From an uncultured bacterium (GTDB taxonomy: Bacteria > Omnitrophota > Gorgyraeia > Kaelpiales > Kaelpiaceae), in contig CBEUCN010000001.1 of assembly GCA_965541635.1 (NCBI GenBank), positions 13,526 to 77,525 on the forward strand: 64,000 nucleotides of DNA, read 5' to 3'. Of this stretch, positions 1,349-24,337 are shown piece by piece. The position numbers were made by a program, and so were the translations under genes. The first letter of the stretch is position 1. Each line of letters opens with the position of its first letter. The notes beneath the pieces were generated by a model. The model was not told the DNA's origin, did no database searches, and saw nothing but the letters and a program-made list of their open reading frames with translations.

Positions 1349-2166
1349 AGCACAATCTCCGGAGAAAATACCGGACCTTCTTTACATATTCTCAAAAGTC
1401 CTTTCTGAGTAGGCAAAACACATCCCCAGCAAAATCCCACCCCACAGGCAAAATGAGATTCAAATGAGAAGTAAGCAGAATTTTTAGATTTAATCTTTTC
1501 ATATATTGCCCTGAGCATCTCAATAGGGCCTGCAGAATAAATACAACCATTTATCTCCGATATAAACTCTGTAACTATCCCTTTCTTCCCTACACTACCA
1601 TCCTCAGTTATTAGTTCCACTTCTGTATTATCAGGTAAAAATTCACTAAATGCTTTAACTTCTTTACTCTTACTTCCAATGAAGAATTTTAAAGTTAGCA
1701 TGGTTTTCTCTTTAATAAGTTCTTTGGCTAGAAAATGTAATGGAGCAAATCCTGTTCCTCCAGAAATAAATATCACATTTTTTTTATCGGGTTGGGGGAA
1801 ATAATTACCCAAAGGGAATATCACATCCACAACATTTGATTTTTTAAGTGTAGTCATCTTATGAGTAACTTTACCCCGCAATTTATACAAAATTTTTATG
1901 TTTCCATCCTGATAATCAAATATACTGAATGGTCTTCTCAAAAACTGAACATCTTCATTTAAACTCAACTGCAAAAATTGCCCAGGCCTGACTTCGACAT
2001 TTTCGTTTGTTTCTAAAATCAAAAGAAAATGTTTTGGGGCTATTTCTTTATTGCAAATGACTTTTAATTTTTTACGAATGGCTTTCACCGCTGACACCCT
2101 GGACAATAGTATACAGACCTCCCCCCCACCTTCACCCGGTGAATCCTGTTGGGACAGAAAGAACAA
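1333..2166 (-). CDS. pyrK: dihydroorotate dehydrogenase electron-transfer subunit (FAD/NAD-binding, 2Fe-2S)
   Basis: PyrK-like ferredoxin-reductase fold with a C-terminal cysteine cluster (CGVGFCWGC). The true start is probably downstream of 2166, because the reported N-terminus overlaps the mutM 3' end by about 80 nt. Confidence 0.8.
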   Translation of the reverse strand: MFFLSQQDSPGEGGGEVCILLSRVSAVKAIRKKLKVICNKEIAPKHFLLILETNENVEVRPGQFLQLSLNEDVQFLRRPFSIFDYQDGNIKILYKLRGKVTHKMTTLKKSNVVDVIFPLGNYFPQPDKKNVIFISGGTGFAPLHFLAKELIKEKTMLTLKFFIGSKSKEVKAFSEFLPDNTEVELITEDGSVGKKGIVTEFISEINGCIYSAGPIEMLRAIYEKIKSKNSAYFSFESHFACGVGFCWGCVLPTQKGLLRICKEGPVFSPEIVLWERI

Positions 2167-2888
2167 AATTCTCCCTCTTTCCCATAAACCATATGTTCAT
2201 ACCTATATTTACCAGGATTTCCCCAGGCATCAAGATAAGTATCAATAGAAGAGCCTCCTGCTTTCAATGCTTTATTTAATATTTCCAGAATAGCATAATA
2301 AAGATTTTCTACTTCCTTATCTTTAAGTTCGGAACTTTTTCTAAAGGGACTTATCTTCGCTCTATACAGGATCTCATTGGCATATATATTACCGATACCA
2401 GCAATTATTCTCTGATCCATAAGAAAGTTATACATTTGCTTATTTCTTTTTTTCAAAAGAGATTTTAAAAGATAGGAATTGAATTTGGGAGATAGAGGGT
2501 CTACTCCCATTTCTTTTATTAATGGAACCTGTTCCGATTTTTTAACCAGATACCACTCACCCAGTTTCCTTTTATCCCGATAACATAAAAAACTATTATC
2601 AGCAAATATCAATTTAATACAAAAATTATCATTACTACCATAAACAATCTGTCCAGTCATCCTAAGATGTATCACAATCTTAAATCCGTTTGTTAATTCC
2701 AGTATTAAAAACTTACCTTTGCGGTGTATGTTTTTGATCCTGGACCTGATATTTTTCTTCCAGACTGGAATTGTCCGAGGTTTTTTTAAAATCTTTTTCT
2801 CTCTCACCTCGATATCCCTAATCCTTTTACCTACAATTAAACTCTGAAGATCATGTCTGATTGTTTCTACCTCTGGTAACTCTGGCAT
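2085..2888 (-). CDS. mutM: formamidopyrimidine-DNA glycosylase (Fpg/MutM)
   Basis: N-terminal MPELPEVE catalytic motif and a C-terminal zinc finger ([22 protein letters not shown]). It sits between carB and pyrK. Confidence 0.9.
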
Positions 2889-5800
2889 AACTTACTCCTT
2901 TGATTATGATATTCCTGTAATGACTTTACACTCAATTTACTGGTTAGTAAAGATTCTAAAGCATTTACTGTCGCCTGAGCACCAGGGATAGTGGTTACGA
3001 TAGGTATTCCATATTGAATGGCATGACTGCGAATCTTTACCTCATGCTCTCTGGGGACTTTACCGGAAGGAGTATTTATTATCAACTGAATCTCGCGATT
3101 TTTTATCAAATCCAAAACATTGGGCCTTCCTTCTTGAATTTTATAAACAGTCTTTACATCTACCCCATGAGTATGTAAAACCTTGGCTGTTCCGGAAGTA
3201 GCAATTAAAGAAAATCCCAAATCTTTAAGTCTTTTGGCTATAAATACAATCTTTCTTTTATCTTTATTCTTTACACTTACGAAAATCTGACCTCTTTTAG
3301 GTAAATTCTGACCCGCCCCTATTTGAGATTTAAGGTAGGCTTTCCCGAATTCAGTATCAATACCCATAACCTCCCCTGTAGATTTCATCTCGGGGCCCAA
3401 AATTATATCCACTCCCGGGAATCTATTAAATGGAAATACCGATTCCTTAACTGCAACGTAATCTATATTAACCTCTGTTGTAAATCCCAATTCTTTAAGA
3501 CTCTTTCCAGTCATAACCTTGGCTGCTAATTTTGCTAAAGGAACACCTATGGCTTTACTCACAAATGGAATTGTCCTGGAAGCGCGGGGATTTACTTCCA
3601 GAACATATATATCATCCTCCTTCACTGCATACTGGACATTCATCAACCCCACGATGTTTAACTCCCTGGCCATGGCAATTGTATACTGTTTTATTTTACG
3701 AACAATCTCATCGGGAAGACTATATGGTGGTAGGACCATCGCTGAATCTCCAGAATGAACTCCAGCCTCTTCAATATGTTCCATAACTCCACCGATTACC
3801 TGATGCTTACCATCAGCTATCATATCAACATCAACCTCGATAGAATCCTCAAGATATTTATCTATAAGAACTGGATGCTCCTCAGATGCCTGAACAGCAA
3901 ATTTCATAAACCTTTCCAGATCACCATCATCGTAAACAATTTCCATTGCTCTTCCACCCAGAACATAAGAAGGACGTAAAAGCACAGGATATCCTATTTC
4001 ATGAGCAATTCTCTTCGCCTCCTCCAAATTAGTAGCGGTACCATTGGGAGGCTGTTTGATGCTTAATTTCTCCAGAAGTTGTTTGAATCTTTTACGATCC
4101 TCTGCCCTATCTATACTATCAGCAGAAGTGCCCAGAATATTTACTCCTGCCTCCCGAAGTGGTACTGAAAGGTTTAAAGGAGTTTGACCACCAAACTGAA
4201 CAATTATCCCTTCCGGTTTTTCTTGATAAATTATGTTAAGGACATCTTCTTTGGTCAGAGGCTCAAAATACAACTTATCAGCAGTATCATAATCAGTAGA
4301 GACTGTTTCCGGATTGGAATTTATCATTATGGTTTCATATCCCAGTTCTCGAAGAGCAAATACTGCATGCACGCAACAGTAATCAAATTCAATTCCCTGT
4401 CCAATTCTATTAGGTCCTCCTCCCAGAATAGCAATCTTTTTCCTTTTAGTTATTCTGGCTTCATTTTCCCGTTCATAGGTAGAATAATAATAAGGAGTAT
4501 AAGCCTCGAATTCTGCTGAACAGGTATCGACCAGTTTATATACACATTTTATATTATGACTCTCACGCAAAGTTCTTATTTCATCTTCACTTCTCCCCAG
4601 AATCCAGGCTAATTGACGGTCAGAAAATCCATATTGCTTTGCCTTATACATAACTTCTGAAGGCAATCCCTGATCGGAGAATAAATTGCGGGAATACCTC
4701 TCTTTAAGATACTCTCCAAAATCTACAATTTCTTTTATCTGAGCCAAAAACCATCTATCTATCTTTGTGAATTCATAAATCTCATCTATACTAATTCCTC
4801 TTTTTAATGCCTCTTTTATATAGAAGACTCTCTCGGCATTGGGAATGATAAGTTTTTTTCTTAACTCCTCATCATTAATTGTACTTTCTGCCTCTCTGCC
4901 ATCGTAACCTAAACCAAATCTCCCAATTTCCAGTGACCGCAAACCTTTCTGAAGTGCTTCCTTAAATGTTCTACCAATTGCCATCACCTCTCCTACTGAT
5001 TTCATTTGAGTAGTCAATGTGGAATCAGCCGAAGGGAATTTTTCAAATGCCCACCGTGGAATTTTTACAACGCAATAGTCTATTACCGGCTCGAATGATG
5101 CTGGAGTTTTTTTAGTAATATCATTAGGAATTTCATCCAGAGTATAACCAACAGCCAATTTAGCAGCAATCTTAGCAATGGGAAAACCTGTAGCCTTGGA
5201 AGCAAGTGCTGATGACCGCGAAACCCGGGGATTCATCTCTATTATAACCATACGACCATTGTCAGGGTGAATAGCAAACTGAATGTTGGAGCCACCGGTT
5301 TCAACACCAATTTCCCGAATACAGGCAATTGCTGCATCCCGCATTCTCTGATATTCCTTATCAGTTAATGTCTGAGCAGGAGCAACCGTTATGGAATCCC
5401 CGGTATGAATTCCCATGGGGTCAAAGTTCTCTATGGAACATATAATAACCACATTATCTTTGAGGTCACGCATTACCTCAAGTTCAAATTCCTTCCAGCC
5501 AATAACTGATTCTTCAATTAAAATTTCATTAATCATAGAAAGAGAAAGTCCTCTTTGGGCTATCTCCTCAAATTCCTCCCAGTTATAAGCCACTCCACCT
5601 CCAGTACCACCAAGGGTAAAACTGGGACGAATAATTACAGGAAATCCCAATTTTTCCGCTATTTCTTTTGCCTCATCCAAATTATAAGCCTTGCCACTTC
5701 GGGGAACTTCCAGACCTATCTTTTCCATTGCCTCCTTAAATAACTGGCGATCCTCAGCCTTACGTATTGCCTGTTCATTGGCTCCAATTAGTTTAACCTT

Positions 5801-6133
5801 ATGCTTCCTTAAAATACCTTCTTCTGCTGCCTTCACTGCTACATTTAAGGCTGTCTGCCCTCCCAGTGTAGGAAGCAGAGCATCAACTTTTTCTCTTTCC
5901 AGTATCTTATCCAATACCTCAACTGTGATGGGTTCAATATAAGTACGGTCAGCAAATTCCGGATCAGTCATAATGGTAGCAGGATTGGAGTTTAAAAGCA
6001 CAACCTCAAATCCTTCCTGTTTCAACGCCTTACAGGCCTGAGTCCCGGAGTAATCAAATTCACAGGCCTGTCCGATTACAATTGGACCAGAACCAATTAT
6101 CAAAATTTTTCTTATATCAGTCCTCTTAGGCAT
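2867..6133 (-). CDS. carB: carbamoyl-phosphate synthase large subunit
   Basis: The 1088-aa ORF has two ATP-grasp halves; the N-terminus is [33 protein letters not shown]. Confidence 0.95.
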
Positions 6134-7202
6134 TTTTTTTCACCAGATCTATAAACTCTTTAAATATATGCTTGGCATCATTAGGTCCTGGTCCTGCTTC
6201 TGGATGATACTGCACAGCCATTATTGGCATCTTTTTATGCCGGAAACCCTCCAGAGTTTTATCATAAAGATTTATATGAGTTATATGACAACAATCTGAA
6301 ATGGAATCAGGATCAACACAGAAACCATGATTCTGGGCAGTAATATCAATTTTACCCGTATTTAAATCCTTAACAGGATGATTGCCTCCGTGATGACCAA
6401 ATTTCAACTTATAAGTTTTTCCGCCAAGTGCAAGCCCCAGTATCTGATGACCAAGACATATCCCGAATATTGGTAACTTACCCAAAAGTTTTTTAAGTTC
6501 AGTTATAACATGAATAACTGCTGCTGGATCGCCCGGCCCATTGGAAACCAAAAGTCCCTGAGGTTTATCTTTAAGAATATCCTCACCACTGGAATGGACA
6601 GGATAAACTTTAACCCGGCAGTTATTTTTTGCCAGCATCTGGAGAATACTTCTCTTAACTCCACAATCCCAGACAGCAATCTCCACTTCTCCTTCTTCTT
6701 GAAAATAATAAGGCTGGGTACAACTTACCTCACAGGCTAAGTTTCTTCCCACCATCTGGGGGGACTGTAGAACACGCTCTAATAGTGATTGGGGATTTAA
6801 ATCCACACTGGAAATACCACCCCGCATTGCTCCCTTAATTCTTATTTTCCTGGTCAACTCTCTGGTATCAATTCCTTCAATTCCTGTAATTTTATATTTT
6901 TCCAGATAAGAGTGTAAATCCTCTTCTGCTCTCCAGTTGGAAACCAGTGGTGAAAGTTCCCGGACCACAAATCCCTCCACTTGAGGACGGACAGATTCTA
7001 TATCTTCAGAGTTAACACCATAATTTCCAATATGGGGATAAGTCATACATACAATCTGTCCTTTATAGGAAGGGTCGGTCAAAATCTCCTGATAACCGGT
7101 TATACTGGTATTGAAAACTACTTCTCCCAATTTTTCACCCGGATACCCAAACGCCCGTCCTTCAAAATAACTTCCATCCTCAAGAACAAGTATCGCCTTC
7201 AT
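6126..7202 (-). CDS. carA: carbamoyl-phosphate synthase small (glutaminase) subunit
   Basis: CPSase small-subunit N-domain plus a class-I glutamine amidotransferase domain (GICLGHQ). It is directly upstream of carB and overlaps it. Confidence 0.95.
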
Positions 7203-7203
7203 A

Positions 7204-8439
7204 TCAGAAAAGGCTCAATTGTTTCTCCCCACCCTTTTCCTGTTCTTGGTCGTCAAATACTTTTATCTTTCCATAAACCCCATCATATCCGGGCTCAATT
7301 TTCACATTACCATTCCTCACTCTGATTATCCCCTCCGCCAATTTAGAAGGCAAATTCTCTCTCAAAAAATCCTCCTCTATATGAAGTAGAATTTCCAGTT
7401 CTGACCCAAATCTCTGAATTAAACTTTTATATTCAGTTATCACTGACTGAGCATTTTTCTGAACACCTTTAGTCTCAGCAATTATTTCATCCAGAGGTAT
7501 TAAATTTTTAAAAGGGATTGCAGACTCAGGGACAACTCCTTCTTCTCTATCAGCAAGTTGTTCCACACGATGCATAACTCCAATTGTTAATGGCCTTTTG
7601 CATACCGGACAGATATTATTAAGTTTCATACTCTCTCTGGGCGAAAGTCTTATTCCACAATTGCGATGACCATCATAATGATATTTCCCCTCCTGAGGAT
7701 AAAATTCTATGGTATATAAAAACTTGCTTTTATCTTTATTCCTCATGGCAGTAATTATTTCCATATAATCAATCTTCGTATCCAGAACATTTGCCTCCCT
7801 ACCAATTCTGGAAGGGGAATGACTATCGGAATTGGAAACCAAAATATAAGAATCAAGTTTAGAAAGACGCCAGTTCATCGCAGGATCACTGGAAAGACCT
7901 GTTTCCAGAGCATATATATATTTGGTATAAGGACCAAAACATTCTTCAATATCATCAAATCCAGAGTTGGAGCCAAACAGACTGAACCAAGGAGTCCAAA
8001 TATGGCAGGGAATAATCATACAATCAGTGCTTATCCCCAGAATAATCTCCACCAAATCCTTTGCTGACAGTCCCAAAACCGGCCTACCATCAGCACTAAG
8101 ATTTCCAAATTTAGCCAGTTGGCTATTAATCTTTTCCACTATTTCAAATGATGGCGCCATTATCAAGTTGTGAATCTTGCGCAGTTTTCCTCCCTGAGAA
8201 TAAACATTGGAAACTTCAGCAGTGAGTATATAATGAATGCCCTTATATTCATAAATTCCATAACTTTTAGGTGTAAGTTTAGATTTTAACTCCTGAAGCC
8301 ACAAAAAATGAGTAAAATCTCCAGTGCCTAAAACATCTATCCCTTTAAGTTTAGCAAACTCACTGAGATGGTCCAAATCCATGTCCCTACTTGTAGCACG
8401 GCTGTATTTAGAATGAATGTGAAAATCAATTACTATCAT
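7204..8439 (-). CDS. PHP-domain nuclease, endonuclease Q-like (TIGR00375-type)
   Basis: N-terminal PHP metal site DFHIHSKYS...GTGDFTH, an internal CPVC zinc finger, and a C-terminal GYDGVYGKI motif resembling EndoQ. About 410 aa, similar in length to archaeal EndoQ. The call is from remembered motifs only. Confidence 0.55.
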   Translation of the reverse strand: MIVIDFHIHSKYSRATSRDMDLDHLSEFAKLKGIDVLGTGDFTHFLWLQELKSKLTPKSYGIYEYKGIHYILTAEVSNVYSQGGKLRKIHNLIMAPSFEIVEKINSQLAKFGNLSADGRPVLGLSAKDLVEIILGISTDCMIIPCHIWTPWFSLFGSNSGFDDIEECFGPYTKYIYALETGLSSDPAMNWRLSKLDSYILVSNSDSHSPSRIGREANVLDTKIDYMEIITAMRNKDKSKFLYTIEFYPQEGKYHYDGHRNCGIRLSPRESMKLNNICPVCKRPLTIGVMHRVEQLADREEGVVPESAIPFKNLIPLDEIIAETKGVQKNAQSVITEYKSLIQRFGSELEILLHIEEDFLRENLPSKLAEGIIRVRNGNVKIEPGYDGVYGKIKVFDDQEQEKGGEKQLSLF

Positions 8440-8884
8440 CTAAAATCTCCTGCAAATATTTATTAGCGAGGTCCCAGTGTGTTCCCTTCCAGAATATTTT
8501 TTTACATTTGGGACATTTATAAAACTCATTCTGAGTCTGGTAGACATATTGGGGAACTTTATCTTTAACCAGTTGCTTATCTACTTTTCTAATCTCAGCA
8601 TTGCAGTCGGTACATCTTGAAAACAGATTGTCAGGATTTATATCTAAACCAATTTTTTCTTTCAGTTCCCTTATCTGATCCTTAAGACAGTCGTAATGAA
8701 TAATAACTTTCTTCACTGCTGATTCCTGTGCGAGTTTTTTTCGCCGGGTGAGAATAATTCTATCTTCTTGGAGTGCTTTTACAATCAACGAACTGTCTCT
8801 TCCCCGAAAATAATAAGCATCATAACCCACTATTCTCAACCATCGACATAATCTGCCGAGTTCAGGAGTAAGGATAAATTTCAC
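8426..8884 (-). CDS. Mut7-C / DUF82 PIN-like RNase domain protein with a C-terminal zinc ribbon
   Basis: N-terminus MKFILTPELGRLCRWLRIVGYD is typical of PF01927. C-terminal CTDC...CPKC zinc ribbon. It overlaps the PHP gene start by 14 nt. Confidence 0.65.
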   Translation of the reverse strand: MKFILTPELGRLCRWLRIVGYDAYYFRGRDSSLIVKALQEDRIILTRRKKLAQESAVKKVIIHYDCLKDQIRELKEKIGLDINPDNLFSRCTDCNAEIRKVDKQLVKDKVPQYVYQTQNEFYKCPKCKKIFWKGTHWDLANKYLQEILDDSN

Positions 8885-9666
8885 TCTCCTGTATTTTGTT
8901 CTTTATTAGTTCTTACCTTCTGCTGTTTCTTCTCAAGAATCTGCCTTGCCTGATTTGTAGAATCAATTACATTTATCCCCTCTGGCTGCTTGAAAGTAAA
9001 CTCACTGGCAGGAATATCAATGTTTACCTTAACATCTTTGAGAACCTGATAAAACACTAAATTGCCATCGGAATCATAATATTCTGCTTTTCTCTGGAGA
9101 CCATCATTTATTCCTACCCAGATTTTTACTCGAGAAACATTCTGGGGTAAATCCATATTTTCTTTTCTGGCTTCACTCAACTGGCCTTCAAACACATATA
9201 CCTTTTCACCATCGAGGTTTTTTATTCCCAGATATTTTATATTTTCCTTTTGAACATCTGCCACAGGACTCTCTACCTTACTCTGTCCTTCCACCAAATC
9301 TTTAGCCTGAGGGAATTCTTTTTTCAGAGCTGCAAGGTCGACTTTAGATGCCAGTTTAAAAAACGGCATATACTGCCACATTGTTAAACCATCAGAATAC
9401 ATATACTGTTTGGTGCGGTCTTCTCCTTTCACTCCAATTTCCATCCGGAGTTTATCTGGCCTCACAAATTTTATCTCACCACTTAACTCCATTATCCCTC
9501 TTTCGGTTTGAAGAAATACCATCTCAATCTTTGCCTGATAGGATTTAAGATTCTTAATTTTGTTCTGAATGTCATTTAAAACCTTGGTAAGTTCATCTTC
9601 TTCTGCTTTACCCTGCAATCCCACCAGTAACAAACCTACGGCTAAAAGCGCTGCTAGTTTCTTCAT
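8881..9666 (-). CDS. exported LolA-like (outer-membrane lipoprotein carrier fold) protein
   Basis: Signal peptide MKKLAALLAVGLLLVGLQG followed by a beta-rich 240-aa domain resembling the LolA/DUF4292 family. It overlaps its neighbours by 4 nt on each side. Confidence 0.45.
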   Translation of the reverse strand: MKKLAALLAVGLLLVGLQGKAEEDELTKVLNDIQNKIKNLKSYQAKIEMVFLQTERGIMELSGEIKFVRPDKLRMEIGVKGEDRTKQYMYSDGLTMWQYMPFFKLASKVDLAALKKEFPQAKDLVEGQSKVESPVADVQKENIKYLGIKNLDGEKVYVFEGQLSEARKENMDLPQNVSRVKIWVGINDGLQRKAEYYDSDGNLVFYQVLKDVKVNIDIPASEFTFKQPEGINVIDSTNQARQILEKKQQKVRTNKEQNTGE

Positions 9667-10982
9667 GTCTCTTCCTCCTTGTGTTTAAAATTTTCCATAA
9701 CAAGTTTCCCCCCCGCAATTACATCTCTAATTCTGCCCTCAAACTGCCATCCTAAAAAAGGAGTATTTCTGCTACGGGAAATAATCTCACCTGAAGTATA
9801 TTCCCACTTGACCTTAGGATTAAAAATTACAACATCAGCCCTCATTCCTTCTTTAATCTCTCCACGATCATTTAATCCCAGAATTTTGGCAGGATTTAAA
9901 CTGAAACTGGCAATCAATCTTAAAGGATCAATTAACTCTTGCATTACCAGTTTCCAGCCAATAACAAACGCAGTCTCCAACCCAATTATTCCAAATTCTG
10001 CACTGGCAAACTCGCAATCCTTTTCTTCAGGAGAATGAGGAGCATGGTCAGTTGAGATGCAATCAATTATTCCTGAAGATAATCCAGAAATTAAAGCTTT
10101 CCTGTCATCTTCGGTGCGCAATGGGGGGTTCACCTTAGCATTTGTATTGTAACTGCCTATTGCCTGCTCATTCAAAATCAAATAATGGGGACAGGTATCC
10201 ACTGTAACTTTTAACCCTCTCTCCTTGGCTGTTTTTATTTCCTCCAGCCCTTTTTTGGTACTAAGATGGGTTATATGCAATCTGGCATTGCTCAACTCTG
10301 CCAGTTCTAAATCTCGTTTTATAGCCACAATCTCAGCAGTGGCTGGCATTCCTTTCAATCCCAACATGACTGAATAAGTCCCTTCATTCATCTCTCCATT
10401 CTTTGTCAATGATTTATCCTCACAGTGCTGAATTATAATAGTATCAAGCATCAAACTATATTCCAGAGCCCTACGCATCAACAAGGAATCCTCAACCCAG
10501 TTTCCATCATCAGAAAAACCTACACATCCTGCCTCCCTCATCCTTGCCATCTCAGTTAACTCCTTTCCCTGTCTTTCTTTAGTTATTGCTCCCACTGGCA
10601 AAATATCTATTAAATTCACCTCGTTACTTCTTTTACAAATATATCTTACCATACCAGGGTTATCGATTGCCGGTTGCGTATTGGGCATAACACATACAGT
10701 AGTAAAGCCTCCTTTTATGGCTGACAGGGAACCAGAATAAAAATCTTCCTCATCTTCTCTTCCCGGTTCCCGAAAATGAGCGTGCATATCTATAAATCCA
10801 GGTAGAACATAAAGGCCCTCAGCAGAGATTATTTTATCTGCTTTATCAGATATATTATCTGCAATTTTTGTAATTATACCGTCAGAAACAAGTATGTCCT
10901 TAGGCTTAAAATCCCAATTTTTAAAGTCAGCCACATTTCCGCCTTTAATTACTATCCTCAATCTTCCCTCCAGCGCCAGCAA
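9663..10982 (-). CDS. pyrC: dihydroorotase
   Basis: Amidohydrolase metal site FIDMHAHFREPG. Located between pyrB and carA in the pyr operon. The reported N-terminus overlaps the pyrB end by 38 nt, so the true start is probably later. Confidence 0.9.
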   Translation of the reverse strand: MLALEGRLRIVIKGGNVADFKNWDFKPKDILVSDGIITKIADNISDKADKIISAEGLYVLPGFIDMHAHFREPGREDEEDFYSGSLSAIKGGFTTVCVMPNTQPAIDNPGMVRYICKRSNEVNLIDILPVGAITKERQGKELTEMARMREAGCVGFSDDGNWVEDSLLMRRALEYSLMLDTIIIQHCEDKSLTKNGEMNEGTYSVMLGLKGMPATAEIVAIKRDLELAELSNARLHITHLSTKKGLEEIKTAKERGLKVTVDTCPHYLILNEQAIGSYNTNAKVNPPLRTEDDRKALISGLSSGIIDCISTDHAPHSPEEKDCEFASAEFGIIGLETAFVIGWKLVMQELIDPLRLIASFSLNPAKILGLNDRGEIKEGMRADVVIFNPKVKWEYTSGEIISRSRNTPFLGWQFEGRIRDVIAGGKLVMENFKHKEEET

Positions 10983-11934
10983 TTAAATACAAAACTGCCA
11001 TCCTTACTGCCAGGCCATTTGTAACCTGATTTAAAACCAAACTACATATACCTTTCTCCTCTAGCCCGGAATCTAAGATATCAGTGCTTAACTCTATCCC
11101 TCTATTCACCGGTCCAGGATGCAATATTAAAAGTCCTGGCCGGGCATATTTTAACAATTTTTTACGATCGATTCCAAAAAATTCTCTGTACTCTGCTATC
11201 GAAGGCAAAAGATTCTCATTTATCCTCTCTCTCTGAATACGGAGTACATTCAGGACATCAACCTCAGCCAGAACTTCTTTCAGGTCATAACATATTTTTA
11301 CTCCCAGATTCTGAAATTCCGACAATAGCATAGTAGAAGGTCCACACAGTATAACTTCTGCCCCCAGTTTTTTAAGCCCATATATATTTGACCTCGCTAC
11401 CCGAGAATGAACAATATCTCCCACAATTCCCACTTTAAGTCCTTCTATCCTACCCTTATTCTCCAGAATGGTAAACATATCCAGCAATGCCTGCGTGGGA
11501 TGCTCATGAATACCATCTCCTGCATTTATTACTCCTGCTGAGACACATCGGGAAAGATAATGAGGTGCTCCGGAAGCAGAATGTCTAATGACTATTATAT
11601 CCACACTCATGGCTTCGATATTTCTCGCAGTATCTTTAAGATTTTCACCTTTTTGCACACTGGATGTGGACACCGCAAAACTTACAGTATCAGCAGAAAG
11701 CCTTTTGGCTGCCAGTTCAAATGACATCTTCGTCCTGGTAGAAGGTTCAAAGAATAATAATACCACAGTCTTACCTCTCAAAGCCGGAACTTTCTTTATG
11801 GGACGGGTGGATATTTCTTTAAACGCCTGGGCAAGTTCCAAAATATATTCTATTTCCTCTTTCTCCAGTTCCTGAAGGCCCAAGAGATGTTTTCTACTCC
11901 ATTTTACCTGTTTATCCAGAAGACTTTCGGGCAT
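10945..11934 (-). CDS. pyrB: aspartate carbamoyltransferase catalytic subunit
   Basis: STRTKMSFE carbamoyl-phosphate-binding motif and HPTQALLD. Confidence 0.95.
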
Positions 11935-12475
11935 CTGTCATCTCCAGCAACACCACTTCATCTTCGCCATCTATTTCTTTCACCCTTACTTCCACAAATT
12001 CATCAAGAGAGGTGGGAATATTCTTCCCCACATAATCTGCTCGTATAGGTAATTCCCTATGTCCCCTATCTATAAGAACCGCCAATTGAATTGCCCTCGG
12101 CCTTCCAAAATCTATCAATTCATCTAAAGCACACCTTACAGTCCTGCCAGTAAACAGAACATCATCTACAAGTATGATATTTTTTTCGTTAAGATCAAAG
12201 TTAAGCTCCGTACCCTTTACCTGAGGTTGTTCTGCAATGAGTGTGAGATCATCACGATAAAGCGTTATATCTAAAACTCCAAATGGGAGTTCTATTCCTT
12301 CTATTTCCTTTATATTATTACGAATACGAGAAGCGAGATAAACGCCCCTGGTTCTAATGCCTACAATTGCCAGTTCATTTAAATTCTTATTCCTTTCTAT
12401 AATCTCATGACTCAGCCTTCGCAAAGTGCGATGCATCTGATTGGCATCCAAAAGCTTAGCCTTTTCCCTTACCAT
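11912..12475 (-). CDS. pyrR: bifunctional pyrimidine operon regulator / uracil phosphoribosyltransferase PyrR
   Basis: N-terminus [26 protein letters not shown] aligns with B. subtilis PyrR; PRTase motif [13 protein letters not shown]. Confidence 0.9.
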
Positions 12476-12506
12476 ATTAAAAAATAAGCCCGTTTTTATT
12501 CGGGCT
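12476..12506 (-). terminator. intrinsic terminator / attenuator hairpin in the pyrR leader
   Basis: The minus strand reads GAAGCCCG-AATAAAAA-CGGGCTT followed by ATTTTTTAAT, then the pyrR ATG immediately after. Confidence 0.6.
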
Positions 12507-12540
12507 TCTCCAGGCCTGTTTTAATTTCACTTTAATTTCT

Positions 12541-12574
12541 ACCTCCCTTGCCAGCCTCACCGGACTGGCTTAAA
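12541..12574 (-). promoter_or_regulatory. PyrR-binding loop (anti-antiterminator) in the leader RNA
   Basis: The minus strand reads UUUAAGCCAGUCCGGUGAGGCUGGCAAGGGAGG. This matches the Bacillus PyrR binding-loop consensus (..UCC.G.GAGGCU.GCAAG..). It forms a hairpin GCCAG/CUGGC. Confidence 0.6.
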
Positions 12575-12584
12575 GGTTTTTGAA

Positions 12585-12612
12585 TTTATACCACGCCCTC
12601 CTCCTTATGTCA
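12585..12612 (-). promoter_or_regulatory. sigma70-type promoter of the pyr operon
   Basis: The minus strand reads TTGACA-17 nt-TATAAA. It lies about 30 nt upstream of the PyrR-binding loop and about 110 nt upstream of the pyrR ATG. Confidence 0.5.
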
Positions 12613-12737
12613 AATAATTTTTCTTAAAAGAAGAACAGTAAAGGCACATGGTATACTTTTAATATGGAGTAGTAAAATTATCTTGCTTTAGTAAAGTAAT
12701 GAAAAAATAAAAGCCTTTGATAAAAATAAACACTGAC

Positions 12738-13631: not shown

Positions 13632-16466
13632 TCATTTGCACAGATAAAAATAGGAGCAGTTCCTACATATGCGAGGGTCAGAATCATCAGGAACGAAAGG
13701 GACAGCAGGATTTAAAATTTCTGAAATTATAAACTCCAGAGCCTTCAGACATATGTTTATAACATCTTGCTCACTTCCCATGTCTTCTTTTTTAAACAAT
13801 TGAGTAAATTCGATATTTCTTAAACTGTAAAGAGCAGCATTTATCCTGCAGTCAGGGAATCTCTTTTTGACAAAATAATAATATAACGGCAATTGAAATG
13901 AATGTATCCTTTTCTTTATCTGTTCTCGAGTCATCTCCATTTCCTGAAGTTTACTCAACCTCTGAGGGGCAGATATAGAACCACCGGTTTTGTAATCTAT
14001 AATTAAAAGACTACCATCCTGAAGTTCTTCCAGTCTGTCTATCTTGCATATGAAATCAAAACTGCCTATTTCAAATTTTATCTTTCCTCCTATACTATCA
14101 TCTTCCAGGGAAATTATTCTTTTAATATCTTCACTTCTTCTGTGCTCGTTGTCCAAAAATCGTTGCAGGCGATGTTCCATTATATACTTTACCAGAAATG
14201 CTTCTGCCCCCATTCTCCGCTGATATTCGTGTTCAAAACGAGATTCAAACTCTTTAAAAAACTTCTCTTTAAATTTCTTGGTAATCTTTGGCCTTGTACC
14301 TATAAACTCTGCAAAACTGTCTTCCAAGAGTTTATGTAAAAACTTCCCGATATCAACAGCCTGAGGCTCTTCCAGAAGGTTCTCATTTTCTTTCACCTTT
14401 AATAGATACTGGTAATAGAACTGTAAAGGACAATTAAGATATATATCCAGACTGCTGGGAGAAAAAGTAAATTTACGTAGTCCCTGAATAATAAATTCTG
14501 ATTTTTCAATTTCAGCCTTCTTTTCTCGAACTTCAACCTGGTATCCGGCTCGCAGTTGAGTAACTACATTTAATTTTTTCTGTAGTCTTTCCTCCTCCCA
14601 TATTATTTCCTCAATAAATCTACTCCTTTCTTTATCAGGACGATCATCGTATATCAGATATACGGAACAGGCAGATTTAATTAGCCGACGGAAGTGATAG
14701 CGTTGAATCTCTTCCTCAACTTCCAGCCGATTCAATCCCAATTCCAACATAATCTGGCGGGGTATCAATGGTTCATACACTCTTAATTTAGGTAGAACTG
14801 TCTCATTGACATCTATTATTATTACATTTTTGAAACTCAATGCCCGGGTTTCATAAAGCCCAAGTATCTGCAATCCTTTGAGAGGAGAACCGAGAAAAGA
14901 AATCATCTCATTTTCCAGTTTATCTATAAAAATTTTAAATAACTCATCCTGAGGAAAAATTTCTTTTTTAAAATCCATTGTTTCCAGTTCATTTTTTATC
15001 TCATAAATTTTTTCTATTACCCGCGTATCGAGAGGAGATTTATAAATCAAACTTCTCTCCAAAAGAATCCTTAAAAACTCATCCAGAACCAATGCCAGTT
15101 GTTCAAAATTGGTCAACCCTTCCCAGATTCTAAATACTACCCGGTGTAATTCCTTAAGAACTTCTTCTAGTCTTTCGGGTTCAATTGTAATACCAATACG
15201 ATTTAATGTTGTTTGAACCCTGGGGTATAATGGTCTAAATTTTTCTATTTCATCCAGAGAAATAAATATACTTCCTGAGAAATCTGCTTCTTCTATTCCT
15301 AAAAGGGATTCTTCAATTTTATGAACTAAAACTCTGGCAACTGCCGGCTCATCATGAATCTTAAGATTTTTAATTAAGGGGTGGGTTATGACTTTAAGAT
15401 AATCACGGGCATAGTATTTTTCTCCATTCTTAGTCATTTGTGTTTTGAATATCGTCTCTATTAGTCTGGAAATGGTGCTTCTATTTACCGGATAGCCCAG
15501 AGAAACATTAAAATCTGTAAGAATCGGAGAAAGTTCCGAAAGCAAAGGCAATAAAGATTGTGCCTGAGGGAGAACTATTACTGTTTCATTGAAATTAAGT
15601 TTGTCTCTCTTTATAACTTCTCTAACCAGACCTGCTTGGGAATGAATATCAAATCCTCGCAGAATAGAGATCCGGGGCTTATTTTTTGGTTTGGGACTGG
15701 AAGGAATTGAAAAAGATAACTCCTTCCCCAGTTTTTCCAAAACAGGCCAGAGTTCTTCATCTTTTTGAAACATCAATACTGCCTTTTCTCTTTGCACGAG
15801 AGTTTTAAAAATATCAAGTTCAGTTTTATGAAGGTAATAAAATCCACAAAAGATGATGTTATCAAATTCTGAAAATTCCAATTCTGAAATCAATTGTGAT
15901 GCTTTAAGATGAACATATCCCGAGGAGAAAGATCTTTTATCTTCCATACGGTGATGAAATTCTTTTCGCAATGTTACAATAGATTCTAAAAGAACGTTGA
16001 TATCCTCAGGCACTTCATATCCAATTTCAGCACTCGCTTCTATCGTGGTTAGTGTACCATCATCCACTCTCTCTTTATCCAGTTCCTGAATGAACGACAA
16101 AATCTCTCTTGCCCAAGGTAAAAACTGATAGAATTTATCCCTTGTGATTAAGATATGAGGAATTTTCTCCTTACTTATTTGGTATAGCCAGTAGCAGAGT
16201 TCAAGGTCCGTGGCTATACTAAAAGATTCTTTCTTTGATACCAGATAATTAACGAATTCTTCTATAGAAAAACATTGGGGAGGATAAAAACTGGTTTTTA
16301 TCTTTTCAGCCAGTTTTTTCTTCAAGAAAAGAGCAGGTCTTTTGCCTCCAAAAACTACCGCCACCCTGCTGAAGTCATTAGAAGATTTTTCATACTTTTG
16401 CAATATATAATCTGCTAATGCCTGAATCATATCGTGATCAAAATTATAGACAATTACTCTATCCAT
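13632..16466 (-). CDS. addB: PD-(D/E)xK nuclease, AddB-like helicase-nuclease subunit
   Basis: The 944-aa ORF has a C-terminal RecB-family nuclease motif IIDYKTG and a Cys cluster (C..C...CRNCSYFYLC, iron-staple type). The N-terminal Walker A is degenerate. It lies directly downstream of the UvrD-like partner, with an 8-nt overlap. Confidence 0.7.
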   Translation of the reverse strand: MDRVIVYNFDHDMIQALADYILQKYEKSSNDFSRVAVVFGGKRPALFLKKKLAEKIKTSFYPPQCFSIEEFVNYLVSKKESFSIATDLELCYWLYQISKEKIPHILITRDKFYQFLPWAREILSFIQELDKERVDDGTLTTIEASAEIGYEVPEDINVLLESIVTLRKEFHHRMEDKRSFSSGYVHLKASQLISELEFSEFDNIIFCGFYYLHKTELDIFKTLVQREKAVLMFQKDEELWPVLEKLGKELSFSIPSSPKPKNKPRISILRGFDIHSQAGLVREVIKRDKLNFNETVIVLPQAQSLLPLLSELSPILTDFNVSLGYPVNRSTISRLIETIFKTQMTKNGEKYYARDYLKVITHPLIKNLKIHDEPAVARVLVHKIEESLLGIEEADFSGSIFISLDEIEKFRPLYPRVQTTLNRIGITIEPERLEEVLKELHRVVFRIWEGLTNFEQLALVLDEFLRILLERSLIYKSPLDTRVIEKIYEIKNELETMDFKKEIFPQDELFKIFIDKLENEMISFLGSPLKGLQILGLYETRALSFKNVIIIDVNETVLPKLRVYEPLIPRQIMLELGLNRLEVEEEIQRYHFRRLIKSACSVYLIYDDRPDKERSRFIEEIIWEEERLQKKLNVVTQLRAGYQVEVREKKAEIEKSEFIIQGLRKFTFSPSSLDIYLNCPLQFYYQYLLKVKENENLLEEPQAVDIGKFLHKLLEDSFAEFIGTRPKITKKFKEKFFKEFESRFEHEYQRRMGAEAFLVKYIMEHRLQRFLDNEHRRSEDIKRIISLEDDSIGGKIKFEIGSFDFICKIDRLEELQDGSLLIIDYKTGGSISAPQRLSKLQEMEMTREQIKKRIHSFQLPLYYYFVKKRFPDCRINAALYSLRNIEFTQLFKKEDMGSEQDVINICLKALEFIISEILNPAVPFVPDDSDPRICRNCSYFYLCK

Positions 16467-19400
16467 CTATTTCTTCTACAATTTTAGTATCAAGATATAA
16501 AATATATCCCCTAACTTTGTAACCAGGATAAATTCCTTTTATAATATCCATATACTCCTTAACCTGATCTCTGTATTCTGGAAGTGGTATACCAGTTTTA
16601 TACTCCACCACCCAGACTTCATTATCTTTTATAATTAATCTATCTATCCTTTTAGTTAATCCCTGACTATCCACTATCTCCTTTTCCTGATAAACTCTAC
16701 CACCATCCAAATAAAAAAATCTTCTAAACGCATTATCATCAACAATTCTGTCTATTAATTGCTTATATTCATTTAGTTGAGAAATATGCCGATACTGAAA
16801 TTTAAGTTGATTACAGGCAATTTCTAAAACTTGAGATTTCTCCTGAACCGAAAGATCAGAAATAAATGAAAGGATAAAATGTAAAATATTACCACGTTCG
16901 ATTTCTTGCCGAGATTTCAAGATATCTCTGGGAACAGATTCATCTTCCAAAAATTCAAACCAGTTCTTGTACTCACAGGGAGATATAAATATAACTTCAT
17001 CTGCTTTTTTCTTCTTACGAGAATAAATCCTTTTATTTCCTCTTTCCCAGTATTCCGGAGGAATGAGGTCAACCGCTATATTTTTCTTTCTTTTCCCACA
17101 GGGCAAAAATGCATAAAGTTCATACTGTGCTCGGGTAAATGCTACATATATAATATTGAGTTCATCAATGATACTCTGTTTATATTCCTCTTTATATATC
17201 TCTCTTATTTCAGGAGATAGAACAACATATTTCTTATCCAAGCGCAAGAGTCTGAGTTTGTCTTCGGATGGAGATACTACATAAGAAAAACTTCTTATAT
17301 CATTGCTTCTACCTGGTTTTATATCTAAATCTAAAAATGGAATTATAACCACAGGAAACTCCAATCCTTTTGCTTTGTGAATGGTAGTAACCCGGATAGC
17401 ATCGGATTCCGAAAATTTAAGATAAAAGACCTCCTCTTCTGTGGTCTCATAGAATTCCAGAAATTCCTCCAGGCTGGAATATTCTTCCTCTTTCTCCTTT
17501 AACAATTCCAGAAGATGCATCACAAATCCCTGATAATAAGGAAAGTTTTGCAATATTTTAAATTTATCAATGATACTTAATACCAGTTCATAAGTATCCA
17601 GAAATCCCACTGATTTAAAAAATTCTTCCAGATATTTACTCCATACTTCAGGATATTTAATACGGAAAGTACGATAAACATATTCACTACTTTTTTCTTC
17701 CAAGCCAGAACCGAATTCCAGTAAAAATTTTTCCAATTGTTTCCTATCCATTCCCGTGGCCTTTAAAAATATCCTTCCAGTTATGAATGTAACAAATGAA
17801 AGATTATCTATGGGAGATTTGAGGAATTTAAGGAAGGAGATTAATTCTTTAATGACAGGATTATTTTTTATATTTAAAGTTTTTTCTGACTGTACTGAAA
17901 ACCCGTCTTCCAGAAGCCAGTTACTTACATTCTCTACTTCATCATTTGACCGGCAAAGAATAGCAATATCGCTAAGAGTAAATTCTCTGGTGGTAGTATC
18001 GGAAATTATTTCAATAAGATGAGACCTTATTTTCTGTTCTCGTTCCTCTTTATCCTCTCCCTCAATTTTTATAATTTTTACATATCCATATTTATTTTCA
18101 GGCTTATATTCCTGACAGGCAGTACTGAAAACATCCAAAATTTCCTGATAATCATAATATGAAAAATTACCAGAAAGACTATTATCTCCAAATTTCTGAA
18201 CTAAAAATCGTTCTAAATTTTCTCGAGAGAATATAGTGTTGTTGAATTTTACTATTTCCTGCTGACTGCGATAATTTACTGTAAGTTGTTCTTCCTTGAC
18301 ATTAAAATCTTTTAAAATTTTCTTAAGGTGATCAAATAATTTCACCTCTCCACCCCGCCAGCGATATATTGCCTGTTTCTTATCTCCAACATAAAATAAA
18401 GTGCCTCCAGAAGAAAGGGCTTCTTCAATCATTAAAAATAGATTTTCCCATTGCAAACCACTGGTATCCTGAAACTCATCTATCAAAAAATGTCGGAAGC
18501 GAGTGGCAAGACGATAGTAAATCTCCGGCACCGAGAATTCTTTTCCAAATAGAGTATTTGCTTTGCGGTTTAACTCCTGTAAAAACATCAATTCCTCTTT
18601 TTGAGCCCGGGCTTCAAATATTTGATATACAAGTTGAAATATATCAATGTAGCAATTAAAAACTGCCTGAGCCTCGGCTGCTGCCATCTTGCTTATTTTA
18701 TTTCTCAATTCCTGCCAGTCCTTTTCCAACTGGGGTGAAACCATAACTGCTCTTTTTACAGGAGGATATTCATAAACAAATGTTTTCTTCCTAGAATTTT
18801 TACCAGTCATGGTGGCAAAATCAAAAACCTCTTCTTCCTGTTCACAGAAATTAGCCAGAGAGTTAGTGAATGTCCCGTTTAATAGTGAGGCATATTTATT
18901 GTAAAATTGAGTAACTAATTTTTTTATCTCTCTTTTGCCCTCCAGAATATAATGAGCATCATATTCAAATTTTCTGAACCCCTTACTGTAGATGTTTATT
19001 TGATAAAACAGTGAATTTAAAAGATTTAAAATATCTCTCTTGGGGAACCAGTTTTCTTTATTCTCTATGTAAACATACTGCCGGAGAAAATCGTAAAAAA
19101 TCTCTCTTATCTTCTGATCTTTGTCTGCCCTATCAATACATTCATCCAGACTGTAAATAAGCAATTGCCTAAAACTTTCCTGAAGTTTAAAATTTGCGGG
19201 CAGTCCTAATCGAAAAGCACATCCTGAAAGAAGAAGATATACAAAACTATCTATGGTCTGAATCTGAAAGAAATTATAATTATGAATTATATAATCAACT
19301 ATCTGGAGAGCAAACCTGCGGGCTTGGATTGTATCCAGTTCAATTTTAGATAAAATCTGTTCCCGTTCATTTTCATTCTGAAACGAATCTAAGGCTATTT

Positions 19401-19614
19401 TCTTTAAAAATTCCAGAATTCGTTCCTTCATTTCTCGGGCTGCCATGTTGGTAAAAGTTATAGCCAAAATAGTTTTTATTACCTCAGGGTGAGAGTCCTT
19501 CTGGAATAATAATTGAACATAACGATGAGCAAGTGCATAGGTCTTACCAGAACCAGCAGAGGCATCTACTATTCTAACCTCAGGAGATGAAATTAGAGAT
19601 TTAGTTTCGGTCAT
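16459..19614 (-). CDS. addA: UvrD/Rep-family helicase with C-terminal RecB-type nuclease, AddA-like
   Basis: Walker A DASAGSGKTYAL at the N-terminus and a C-terminal nuclease VVEYKTG; 1051 aa. Confidence 0.75.
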   Translation of the reverse strand: MTETKSLISSPEVRIVDASAGSGKTYALAHRYVQLLFQKDSHPEVIKTILAITFTNMAAREMKERILEFLKKIALDSFQNENEREQILSKIELDTIQARRFALQIVDYIIHNYNFFQIQTIDSFVYLLLSGCAFRLGLPANFKLQESFRQLLIYSLDECIDRADKDQKIREIFYDFLRQYVYIENKENWFPKRDILNLLNSLFYQINIYSKGFRKFEYDAHYILEGKREIKKLVTQFYNKYASLLNGTFTNSLANFCEQEEEVFDFATMTGKNSRKKTFVYEYPPVKRAVMVSPQLEKDWQELRNKISKMAAAEAQAVFNCYIDIFQLVYQIFEARAQKEELMFLQELNRKANTLFGKEFSVPEIYYRLATRFRHFLIDEFQDTSGLQWENLFLMIEEALSSGGTLFYVGDKKQAIYRWRGGEVKLFDHLKKILKDFNVKEEQLTVNYRSQQEIVKFNNTIFSRENLERFLVQKFGDNSLSGNFSYYDYQEILDVFSTACQEYKPENKYGYVKIIKIEGEDKEEREQKIRSHLIEIISDTTTREFTLSDIAILCRSNDEVENVSNWLLEDGFSVQSEKTLNIKNNPVIKELISFLKFLKSPIDNLSFVTFITGRIFLKATGMDRKQLEKFLLEFGSGLEEKSSEYVYRTFRIKYPEVWSKYLEEFFKSVGFLDTYELVLSIIDKFKILQNFPYYQGFVMHLLELLKEKEEEYSSLEEFLEFYETTEEEVFYLKFSESDAIRVTTIHKAKGLEFPVVIIPFLDLDIKPGRSNDIRSFSYVVSPSEDKLRLLRLDKKYVVLSPEIREIYKEEYKQSIIDELNIIYVAFTRAQYELYAFLPCGKRKKNIAVDLIPPEYWERGNKRIYSRKKKKADEVIFISPCEYKNWFEFLEDESVPRDILKSRQEIERGNILHFILSFISDLSVQEKSQVLEIACNQLKFQYRHISQLNEYKQLIDRIVDDNAFRRFFYLDGGRVYQEKEIVDSQGLTKRIDRLIIKDNEVWVVEYKTGIPLPEYRDQVKEYMDIIKGIYPGYKVRGYILYLDTKIVEEIDG

Positions 19615-23642: not shown

Positions 23643-23864
23643 TTAAATAAGAAGAACCAGAAAAGAAACAACAATAATTGCAACTAATATTATCATCCAC
23701 TTAGGGAAAGATGACTTAGCAATTTTATTACCGCAATAATAGCATAATAAAGCATCATAGGGTATGAGATTTTTACAATGAGGGCACTCCACCATGTGAT
23801 TGAAATCCAGATTTTCTGGTTCTTCAGTTACTTCCTGATAGTCAAAATAATCCTCAACCATCAT
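23643..23864 (-). CDS. small zinc-ribbon protein with a C-terminal transmembrane helix
   Basis: 73 aa with CPHC...CYYC and a hydrophobic tail MIILVAIIVVSFLVLLI. It overlaps the LOG-family gene by 4 nt. Confidence 0.5.
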   Translation of the reverse strand: MMVEDYFDYQEVTEEPENLDFNHMVECPHCKNLIPYDALLCYYCGNKIAKSSFPKWMIILVAIIVVSFLVLLI

Positions 23865-24337
23865 TCTGTTAATAATTCAAACACCTTATTCACAGCTTCT
23901 TCAGGGGTAGAGACATAAATTACATTTTTATCTTGTTCTCCATCGTAAACAAGTTCCCATGATTTTAATGCAACTATTGGCTTTTTGTACAGAAGAGCAA
24001 ATGCAATTTCAGTGAGAGTTCCATAGGCTCCATCAATAGCTATTATCACATCACTGTTTAATACTACTAATAAATTCCTTGCTTCTCCTAACCCAGTGAC
24101 TATTGGAATATCAATATATGGATTGGCATCATAAACACTTCTGGTAGGAAGGATACCTATGGTTTTACCTCCTGCTCGTTTTGCTCCCTTACATACTGCC
24201 TCCATTACTCCCCCCATTCCCCCACATACAATTATTCCTCCCCGAGAAGCGACAAGGTTCCCCACTATTTCTGCTATATTTAAAATTGATTTATCAGCGA
24301 TACTTCCTCCAATTACTCCTATACGAGGATTTATCAT
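23861..24337 (-). CDS. LOG-family / TIGR00725 Rossmann-fold nucleotide-binding protein (putative nucleotide 5'-monophosphate phosphoribohydrolase)
   Basis: GGSIAD...VCGGMGGVMEAV...DGAYGTLTE, matching the LOG GGxG / PGGxGTxxE pattern. Confidence 0.7.
   Translation of the reverse strand: MINPRIGVIGGSIADKSILNIAEIVGNLVASRGGIIVCGGMGGVMEAVCKGAKRAGGKTIGILPTRSVYDANPYIDIPIVTGLGEARNLLVVLNSDVIIAIDGAYGTLTEIAFALLYKKPIVALKSWELVYDGEQDKNVIYVSTPEEAVNKVFELLTE

Follow-up and report, generated by a model that had tools for sequence, protein, structure and literature searches.

Endonuclease Q and other passenger genes in a predicted PyrR-attenuated pyrimidine operon of an uncultured Omnitrophota bacterium

A stretch of 64,000 nucleotides from an uncultured Omnitrophota bacterium (contig CBEUCN010000001.1; called the window below) carries a cluster of pyrimidine genes in which four genes of other kinds are embedded, among them a gene for endonuclease Q (EndoQ). 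We describe the cluster as a de novo pyrimidine operon, expressed as one PyrR-attenuated transcript, that contains an inherited endoQ gene and several passengers, and we give this description a probability of about 60 %. The gene order is pyrR-pyrB-pyrC-[lolA]-[mut7C]-[endoQ]-carA-carB-[fpg]-pyrK-pyrD-pyrF, all on the minus strand. An earlier note, made from the sequence alone, had reported this order together with overlaps at 9663-9666, 8881-8884, 8426-8439 and 2867-2888; every open reading frame (ORF) lies at the coordinates given, and the overlaps are correct in the ORF map.

The first gene, pyrR (11912-12475), encodes a bifunctional pyr operon regulator and uracil phosphoribosyltransferase (NF003549, 253.8 bits; cutoff 138). 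It is followed by pyrB (10945-11934; aspartate carbamoyltransferase; NF002032, 391.8 bits; cutoff 263) and pyrC (9663-10982; dihydroorotase; TIGR00857, 454 bits; cutoff 279). The pyrC start was placed at a TTG codon at 10982; alternative start codons exist, and translation may in fact begin a few codons further on. Then come the lolA-like gene (8881-9666; an exported LolA-fold protein with the Pfam matches DUF2092 and LolA), the mut7C gene (8426-8884; 152 amino acids; PF01927, 143.7 bits) and endoQ (7204-8439; 411 amino acids; a bacterial-type EndoQ with PHP, Zn-binding and C-terminal helical domains). A 1-nucleotide gap at 7203 separates endoQ from carA (6126-7202; TIGR01368, 497.7 bits), which with carB (2867-6133; NF003671, 1746.8 bits) encodes the small and large subunits of carbamoyl-phosphate synthase. 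The formamidopyrimidine-DNA glycosylase gene fpg, or mutM (2085-2888; TIGR00577, 273 bits; cutoff 203.3), is followed by pyrK (1333-2088; dihydroorotate dehydrogenase electron-transfer subunit; NF000798, E-value 3e-49, 167.8 bits, under the cutoff of 219), pyrD (410-1348; the catalytic subunit; NF005574, 340.9 bits) and pyrF (1-417; orotidine monophosphate decarboxylase; NF001273, E-value 1e-38 on the partial protein), which is cut by the window edge. The most likely start of pyrK is the GTG at 2088, with a 4-nucleotide overlap with fpg, rather than 2166, to which the ORF extends, because the gene call in a 94 %-identical relative (locus L081) has 251 amino acids. In L081 and two further related loci (L083 and L084) pyrF and then pyrE follow pyrD, and pyrE is expected beyond the window edge.

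A probable PyrR-controlled leader, which the note had also proposed, was found upstream of pyrR. It consists of a predicted sigma-70-like promoter matching the consensus (12585-12613, minus strand; TTGACA at 12613-12608, a 17-nucleotide spacer and TATAAA at 12590-12585), a putative PyrR-binding hairpin or anti-antiterminator (12541-12577, minus strand; CCUUUAAGCCAGUCCGGUGAGGCUGGCAAGG), which is present in the minimum-free-energy fold, and an attenuator terminator (12478-12507, minus strand). The terminator has a 7-bp GC-rich stem (AAGCCCG...CGGGCUU) and a U-run, and ends 3 nucleotides before the pyrR ATG; it was obtained by terminator scan and folding, and is conserved in the leaders of L081, L083 and L084. 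When ten related loci were searched with Rfam at the gathering threshold, tRNAs only and no PyrR match were returned. The PyrR element is divergent in relatives, and therefore a motif scan and alignment were used in place of the Rfam threshold; one relative, L085, gave a weak RF00515 match. Beyond the attenuator of the leader no second one was detected. A candidate second PyrR site at about 43555 on the minus strand was rejected as a chance match, as Rfam gave nothing there at E-values up to 1 and the flanking genes encode CdhD and a pterin-binding enzyme. Co-transcription of the inserted genes with the pyr genes, and thus co-expression under PyrR, is likely, because the junctions overlap or abut, promoter-like matches inside the cluster stay at the level of shuffled sequence, and no convincing internal terminator is present.

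The pyr operon of Bacillus subtilis is under PyrR attenuation and has the order pyrR-pyrP-pyrB-pyrC-pyrAA-pyrAB-pyrK-pyrD-pyrF-pyrE. The window shares with this type of operon the biosynthetic order (pyrR, pyrB, pyrC, carA, carB, pyrK, pyrD, pyrF), the PyrR regulator/uracil phosphoribosyltransferase, a putative PyrR hairpin followed by an intrinsic terminator in the leader, and tight or overlapping genes. Unlike B. subtilis, it has no pyrP, one detected attenuator in the leader instead of three, and four non-pyr genes (lolA-like, mut7C, endoQ and fpg).

The overlaps had been taken as a sign of functional coupling, which did not survive comparison with the rest of the window, where 23 of 47 junctions overlap, 35 of 47 measure 10 nucleotides or less and all genes lie on the minus strand. 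The tight packing is therefore not special to the pyr cluster. The 59 sizeable ORFs between 410 and 63843 all have the minus-strand orientation, coding sequence makes up about 97 % and the GC skew is uniformly negative; this part of the genome is extremely compact and co-directional.

The proposed identity of the 411-residue protein as an EndoQ-like PHP nuclease was confirmed by full-length homology to Pyrococcus furiosus EndoQ in a phmmer search of PDB (5zb8_A; E-value 6.2e-53; residues 5-396 of the query against 6-384 of the chain). The protein also matches TIGR00375 over model positions 3-374 of 374 (E-value 2.2e-54), with a score of 185.3 bits that lies under the curated cutoff of 326.6. 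Pfam PF27218 (MJ0043_C) is precomputed on all close EndoQ homologues. NCBI lists several of these as 'endonuclease Q family protein'; for others, among them the 94 %-identical homologue, the older name 'DNA helicase UvrD' is in use.

Alignment to the characterized enzyme, as the note had suggested, showed that the metal ligands, the wedge and the lesion pocket are intact. The two-metal ligands of P. furiosus EndoQ are H8, H10, E76, H84, H139 and D193, plus H195 (PMC5961232), and align with H7, H9, E75, H90, H146, D205 and H207 in the window protein. In the same enzyme the lesion pocket is formed by T142, E167, L168, G169, L170 and N191, with W144 as the wedge (PMC5961232); T149, E179, G181, L182, N203 and the wedge W151 are conserved here, and L168, which makes its contacts via the main chain (PMC5961232), is replaced by T180. 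Ligand, pocket and wedge positions are all in the list of invariant columns for 26 homologues, with the possible exception of H9. In the zinc knuckle, for which P. furiosus has C249, C252, C268 and C271, three cysteines are kept (C261, C277 and C280) and the first ligand is His258 (window 7660-7668). This residue of the Omnitrophota-type H258-x2-C261...C277-x2-C280 arrangement is invariant in the 26 homologues, and an HCCC zinc site is plausible. Compared with the characterized EndoQ proteins of P. furiosus (PDB 5ZB8 and 7K30-33) and Bacillus pumilus, the window protein is alike over its full length, in all metal ligands, in the wedge Trp and in the lesion pocket, and differs in the His for Cys at the first Zn ligand, the location of the gene inside a pyr operon and the score under the TIGR00375 cutoff. 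These residues make it credible that the protein is a lesion-specific DNA nuclease, which would be expected to incise DNA 5' of deoxyuridine (dU), deoxyinosine (dI) and apurinic/apyrimidinic (AP) sites.

The tail of the protein (...EKQLSLF) follows an acidic linker and ends with QLSLF (7207-7221, minus strand), a predicted beta-clamp-binding pentapeptide that fits the canonical bacterial consensus QL[S/D]LF / QxxLF (PMC12309361). Among the loci of the clade described below, 26 of 28 have an EndoQ C-terminus of the form Q[LM][SDTEN][LF]F, and QxxLF is present in 67 of 85 EndoQ loci from many bacterial phyla. Archaeal EndoQ has a C-terminal PCNA-interacting protein (PIP) motif that binds PCNA (PMC4858679, PMC5961232). 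The clamp peptide is thus at the extreme C-terminus in both, as the bacterial QLSLF in the window and as the PIP box in archaea. Some loci labelled as DPANN archaea have an EndoQ with a PIP-like tail instead (QKSLDEFF in L063). Judged by this motif, the window protein probably binds the clamp. In the literature that we searched, we found no report that bacterial EndoQ interacts with the beta clamp or carries a clamp motif.

EndoQ homologues are abundant in uncultured bacteria, with at least 8000 protein clusters at E-values of 1e-10 or lower and more than 596 genome loci, the latter labelled as Omnitrophota, Patescibacteria/Candidate Phyla Radiation, Aminicenantes, WOR-3, Thermodesulfobacteriota and others. 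In reviews the enzyme is still said to be confined to Euryarchaea and 'a few bacteria' (PMC8438529, PMC5961232).

Where a source is named, the closest EndoQ homologues (61-94 % identity) come almost all from metagenome-assembled genomes of Candidatus Omnitrophota; the taxon labels of many such genomes are unreliable. Eighty genome loci were obtained via the EndoQ alignment, and the relatives are thus ascertained through EndoQ. About 24 of the 80 have the arrangement pyrR-pyrB-pyrC-endoQ...pyrK-pyrD-pyrF, and these form a single clade in a quick neighbour-joining tree of EndoQ, drawn without support values. In the clade of 29 members (the window included) endoQ lies directly after pyrC in 27, the exceptions being L018 and L029, and the contig of L029 is too short to judge. 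The closest relative, L081 (EndoQ identity 94 %), has the same 13 genes in the same order, including pyrE, an order also seen, with pyrE, in L083 (76 %). In L084 (69 %) lolA-mut7C-endoQ and fpg are retained, and a half-size carB and YjbQ are present. L085, from Ca. Kaelpia imicola (68 %), keeps mut7C-endoQ-fpg and is without lolA and carAB. In L087, from a complete genome (CP070780.1), the order is pyrR-pyrB-pyrC-mut7C-endoQ-pyrK-pyrD-pyrF-pyrE. Because relatives at 94, 76, 69 and 68 % EndoQ identity share the layout and 27 of the 29 clade members keep the slot, the position of endoQ after pyrC is old and vertically inherited, and a recent random insertion is rejected; absence from all relatives, which the note had named as a sign of such an insertion, does not hold.

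The other inserted genes are distributed differently. Within the clade Mut7-C is present in 10 members, the LolA-like gene in 7 and fpg in at least 12, each in a fixed slot (lolA after pyrC, Mut7-C before endoQ, fpg before pyrK) and scattered over several subclades. The simplest explanation of this patchiness is that the genes were present in the ancestor and were lost repeatedly, a reading on which the window retains the fullest version.

Several variants of the cluster were also seen. A half-size carB (about 530-540 amino acids, with an MGS domain) without carA occurs in L003 (11868-13472), L008 (11624-13210), L014 (11673-13274), L020 (6913-8478), L084 (5911-7533) and others, unlike the window, where carA and carB are full-length. 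A SLOG cluster4 (PF18306) gene lies directly after endoQ in eight Omnitrophota pyr clusters (e.g. L003, 11400-11864, and L015, 7285-7797); in the window such a gene is found outside the operon, about 11 kb upstream beside the Era gene (23861-24337, minus strand). In L085 (JAVCCL010000004.1, 8165-9463) pyrC was called as two fragments of 209 and 131 amino acids with a gap between them, while the operon is intact otherwise; the break may reflect a frameshift, a pseudogene or an assembly error.

In a sample drawn independently of EndoQ, comprising 80 metagenome pyrC loci of many phyla (38-50 % identity, and not only Omnitrophota), endoQ was downstream in three, two of them with Mut7-C. This agrees with the impression in the note that the arrangement is uncommon among pyr operons. 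The linkage of endoQ to pyr genes is rare overall, of single origin and lineage-specific. Such a distribution fits selection, but it fits entrapment in an essential operon equally well.

The mut7C product belongs to the proposed family, as its PF01927 score of 143.7 bits is well over the gathering score of 23.3. It has a four-Cys zinc ribbon (C91/C94/C124/C127), invariant in 29 sequences, alongside a small alpha/beta domain. The only active-site residue conserved across PF01927 is an Asp after strand S1 (Matelska et al., PMC5499597). In the window protein this position is Thr6 (FILTPELG), and the other operon-embedded copies have Thr or Ser, while the distant members P0141, P0161 and P0162 retain the Asp (FLVDFMLG, FIADEMLG). 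The Asp of the 'LTRD' motif is lost in the window and variable in the operon-embedded Omnitrophota proteins. The AlphaFold2 (AF2) model (predicted local distance difference test score, pLDDT, 90.6) gave the C-terminal domain of MUT-7 (8q66_A) as its top Foldseek match in PDB (probability 1.00, E-value 6e-3, query-normalised template modelling score 0.52); this was the only meaningful match, and no PIN nuclease was among the PDB matches. The C-terminal domain of Caenorhabditis elegans MUT-7 binds RNA, and the isolated domain served as a negative control in nuclease assays (Busetto et al., PMC11347159). The label of a PIN-like RNase, given in the note, is thus unjustified, because the conserved Asp is lost and the model matches the RNA-binding MUT-7 domain only. 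From sequence and model, the protein is probably a non-catalytic zinc-ribbon nucleic-acid binder and not a cutter. It resembles stand-alone prokaryotic Mut7-C proteins (PF01927) and MUT-7 (8Q66) in the Pfam match, the four-Cys ribbon and the predicted fold, and differs from the family in the Thr/Ser for Asp after strand 1, the variable 'LTRD' Asp and the coupling of its gene to endoQ.

The LolA-like protein has a hydrophobic, signal-peptide-like N-terminus (MKKLAALLAVGLLLVGLQGKA), as judged by eye. It matched DUF2092 (35.8 bits; gathering score 21.2) and LolA (30.6; gathering score 23.6) in Pfam, and scored 56.7 against the equivalog TIGR00547, under the cutoff of 112. For its AF2 model (pLDDT 75.9) the top 25 Foldseek PDB matches were all LolA structures (best E-value 4e-13), and the 94 %-identical homologue is named LolA by NCBI. 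The protein is alike to the LolA proteins of Escherichia coli (1IWL) and Yersinia pestis (4KI3) in its signal peptide, Pfam matches and predicted fold; it is about 60 residues longer, with a charged C-terminal tail, falls below the TIGR00547 cutoff and is encoded inside a pyr operon. It is probably an ordinary periplasmic lipoprotein carrier of a diderm bacterium, and the special role that had been suggested for an exported protein is better explained in this way.

Fpg aligned end-to-end with the Lactococcus lactis enzyme (PDB 1tdz; E-value 1e-55), matching it at the N-terminal PELPEVE, at the lysine of RKGKFL and at the C-terminal CxxC...CxxC, and the gene is apparently intact. The protein has an equivalog-level match and shares with L. 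lactis Fpg (1TDZ) the N-terminal Pro-Glu, the region of the catalytic Lys, the H2TH domain and the zinc finger; the window gene differs from known fpg only by its position between carB and pyrK, both of which it overlaps.

On the preferred description, transcription would run from the one promoter (12613-12585) through the single PyrR attenuator in the leader. When UMP and UTP (uridine mono- and triphosphate) are high, PyrR would bind the hairpin, the terminator would form and transcription would stop; when pyrimidines are scarce, the attenuator would be read through. All twelve genes would tend to be translated in a coupled manner, given their overlapping or abutting start and stop codons. 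The endoQ gene would have entered the slot directly after pyrC in an ancestor of the lineage and would have been inherited there since, with fpg, Mut7-C and lolA as further passengers of varying age in their fixed slots. EndoQ, tethered to the beta clamp, would nick 5' of dU, dI and AP sites, and by its clamp-binding motif it probably acts on clamp-loaded, replicating or freshly replicated DNA. If EndoQ and Fpg share the PyrR-attenuated transcript, their amounts would follow pyrimidine demand.

Several observations weigh against this description or against a function for the linkage, and are considered here with the alternatives. The RF00515 match at 12478-12580 (48.3 bits, E-value 1.4e-5) is under the gathering score of 54, and the strict PyrR-loop motif was present upstream of pyrR in only 9 of 24 related loci, in which the hairpin is conserved with compensatory stem changes. 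Co-transcription is read from the sequence, and internal promoters may be present. Should they drive the inserted genes, these would be transcribed alone and outside PyrR control, and the operon context would be without consequence. Consensus promoter-like hexamers do lie inside the cluster, e.g. at 8839-8810 and 8784-8757 upstream of endoQ, and some relatives have gaps of about 100 nucleotides or a tRNA gene beside endoQ. Against this, the 43 promoter-like matches in the cluster compare with 40.7 ± 7.7 expected from shuffled sequence, a chance level at which the matches decide nothing either way; the inserted genes overlap their upstream neighbours by 4-22 nucleotides; and the terminator scan found no strong internal terminator in the cluster, and none between pyrC and carA. 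We consider independent transcription unlikely, and the single PyrR-attenuated transcript proposed in the note likely. Even less probable, and largely refuted for the trio, is the idea that the LolA-like protein, Mut7-C as an active PIN-like RNase and EndoQ act together as one nuclease sub-system. In the window and its closest relatives the three genes do lie side by side and overlap, and Mut7-C is directly upstream of endoQ in 10 of the 29 clade members over several subclades. However, the three inserts do not travel together in the clade (EndoQ constant, Mut7-C in 10 and LolA-like in 7 of 29) and so are not one unit; Mut7-C is without the sole family-wide active-site Asp (PMC5499597), and its model corresponds to the MUT-7 C-terminal domain (PMC11347159) and not to PIN nucleases; and the exported protein best matches genuine LolA, which is periplasmic and hence in a different compartment from the DNA enzymes. 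A defence or toxin system was also considered and set aside, as PADLOC gave no match for EndoQ, Mut7-C, LolA-like or Fpg.

A stronger alternative, which has a substantial chance of being right even if short of an even one, is neutral entrapment. The repair genes, Mut7-C and lolA would then be passengers without functional logic, inserted once into a compact array, with the dependence on PyrR tolerated, and kept since an essential operon would be disrupted by their removal or relocation. The linkage has a single origin, and such trapping could be enough to maintain it: it is monophyletic, with no convergent recurrence in other phyla, and in 56 non-pyr EndoQ loci 70 of 108 immediately neighbouring proteins were singletons with no pyrimidine, dUTPase or uracil-DNA glycosylase theme, the small neighbour clusters there reflecting related genomes. 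Overlaps are the norm of this genome, as the whole 64-kb window is on one strand, about 97 % coding and overlapping at half of its junctions. Other Omnitrophota pyr operons hold clearly unrelated genes (a PEMT/ICMT-like membrane methyltransferase, a flavodoxin-like FMN reductase, YjbQ, TauE and radical SAM), and in L013 (10796-10867), L014 (11185-11256), L015 (7255-7326) and L020 (6697-6768) endoQ is followed immediately by a tRNA gene of the same orientation. These four belong to one Omnitrophota subclade with the order pyrR-pyrB-pyrC-endoQ / tRNA / SLOG-carB-fpg-...-pyrK-pyrD-pyrF, and the tRNA is absent in the window. Mut7-C, lolA, fpg and even carAB are freely lost in sublineages. Single origin, unrelated passengers and general compaction weaken a functional link. 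In favour of one, many clade members have both endoQ and fpg, independent genes of base-lesion repair, at separate positions of a single operon, which is more than random passengers would lead one to expect, and the EndoQ slot is kept in 27 of 29 members while other passengers turn over. Further nucleotide-related extras also recur, notably SLOG cluster4 in eight loci. On this balance, we regard an adaptive coupling of repair to pyrimidine status as a plausible but tentative proposal. Its most specific form, in which clamp-tethered repair of uracil, hypoxanthine and oxidised bases by EndoQ and Fpg is placed deliberately under the PyrR sensor in Omnitrophota, with a catalytically dead Mut7-C as a dedicated EndoQ accessory, is doubtful.

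Just upstream of the pyr promoter (13632-19614, 20045-21355 and 25538-26056) the window also encodes a helicase-nuclease pair (AddB-like and UvrD-AddA-like), a nucleoside transporter of the NupC type and a homologue of 2-thiouracil desulfurase; the proximity of these repair and nucleoside genes to the operon may be coincidental. Farther away, CdhD-like and pterin-binding (methyltransferase-like) genes (42756-44533) suggest a Wood-Ljungdahl / acetyl-CoA synthase cluster elsewhere in the window.

Every component of the operon is a member or close variant of a known family (the B. subtilis-type PyrR operon, EndoQ, Fpg, LolA and Mut7-C). Literature searches on EndoQ with Omnitrophica, pyrimidine/operon, metagenome and clamp returned no prior description of the arrangement. 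Three features appear to be undescribed in the searched literature, namely endoQ, often with fpg and mut7C, embedded in Omnitrophota pyr operons, the beta-clamp motif of bacterial EndoQ, and the pairing of a degenerate Mut7-C with endoQ. The practical value is modest, as a comparative-genomics lead in an uncultured phylum. Whatever the linkage means, EndoQ is common among bacterial phyla without cultured members, and its typical C-terminus is a beta-clamp motif, which mirrors the PCNA-binding tail of the archaeal enzymes. If the specific form of the coupling were true, repair capacity would rise just at times of low pyrimidine pools, when dUTP or damaged nucleotides are likeliest to be misincorporated. 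It would be a direct regulatory link of nucleotide-pool sensing to base-damage repair, so far undescribed, and would give a first function, via the EndoQ partner, to stand-alone prokaryotic Mut7-C proteins. If the linkage is functional, this bacterium would adjust the repair of base damage to the supply of pyrimidines by means of an RNA attenuator.

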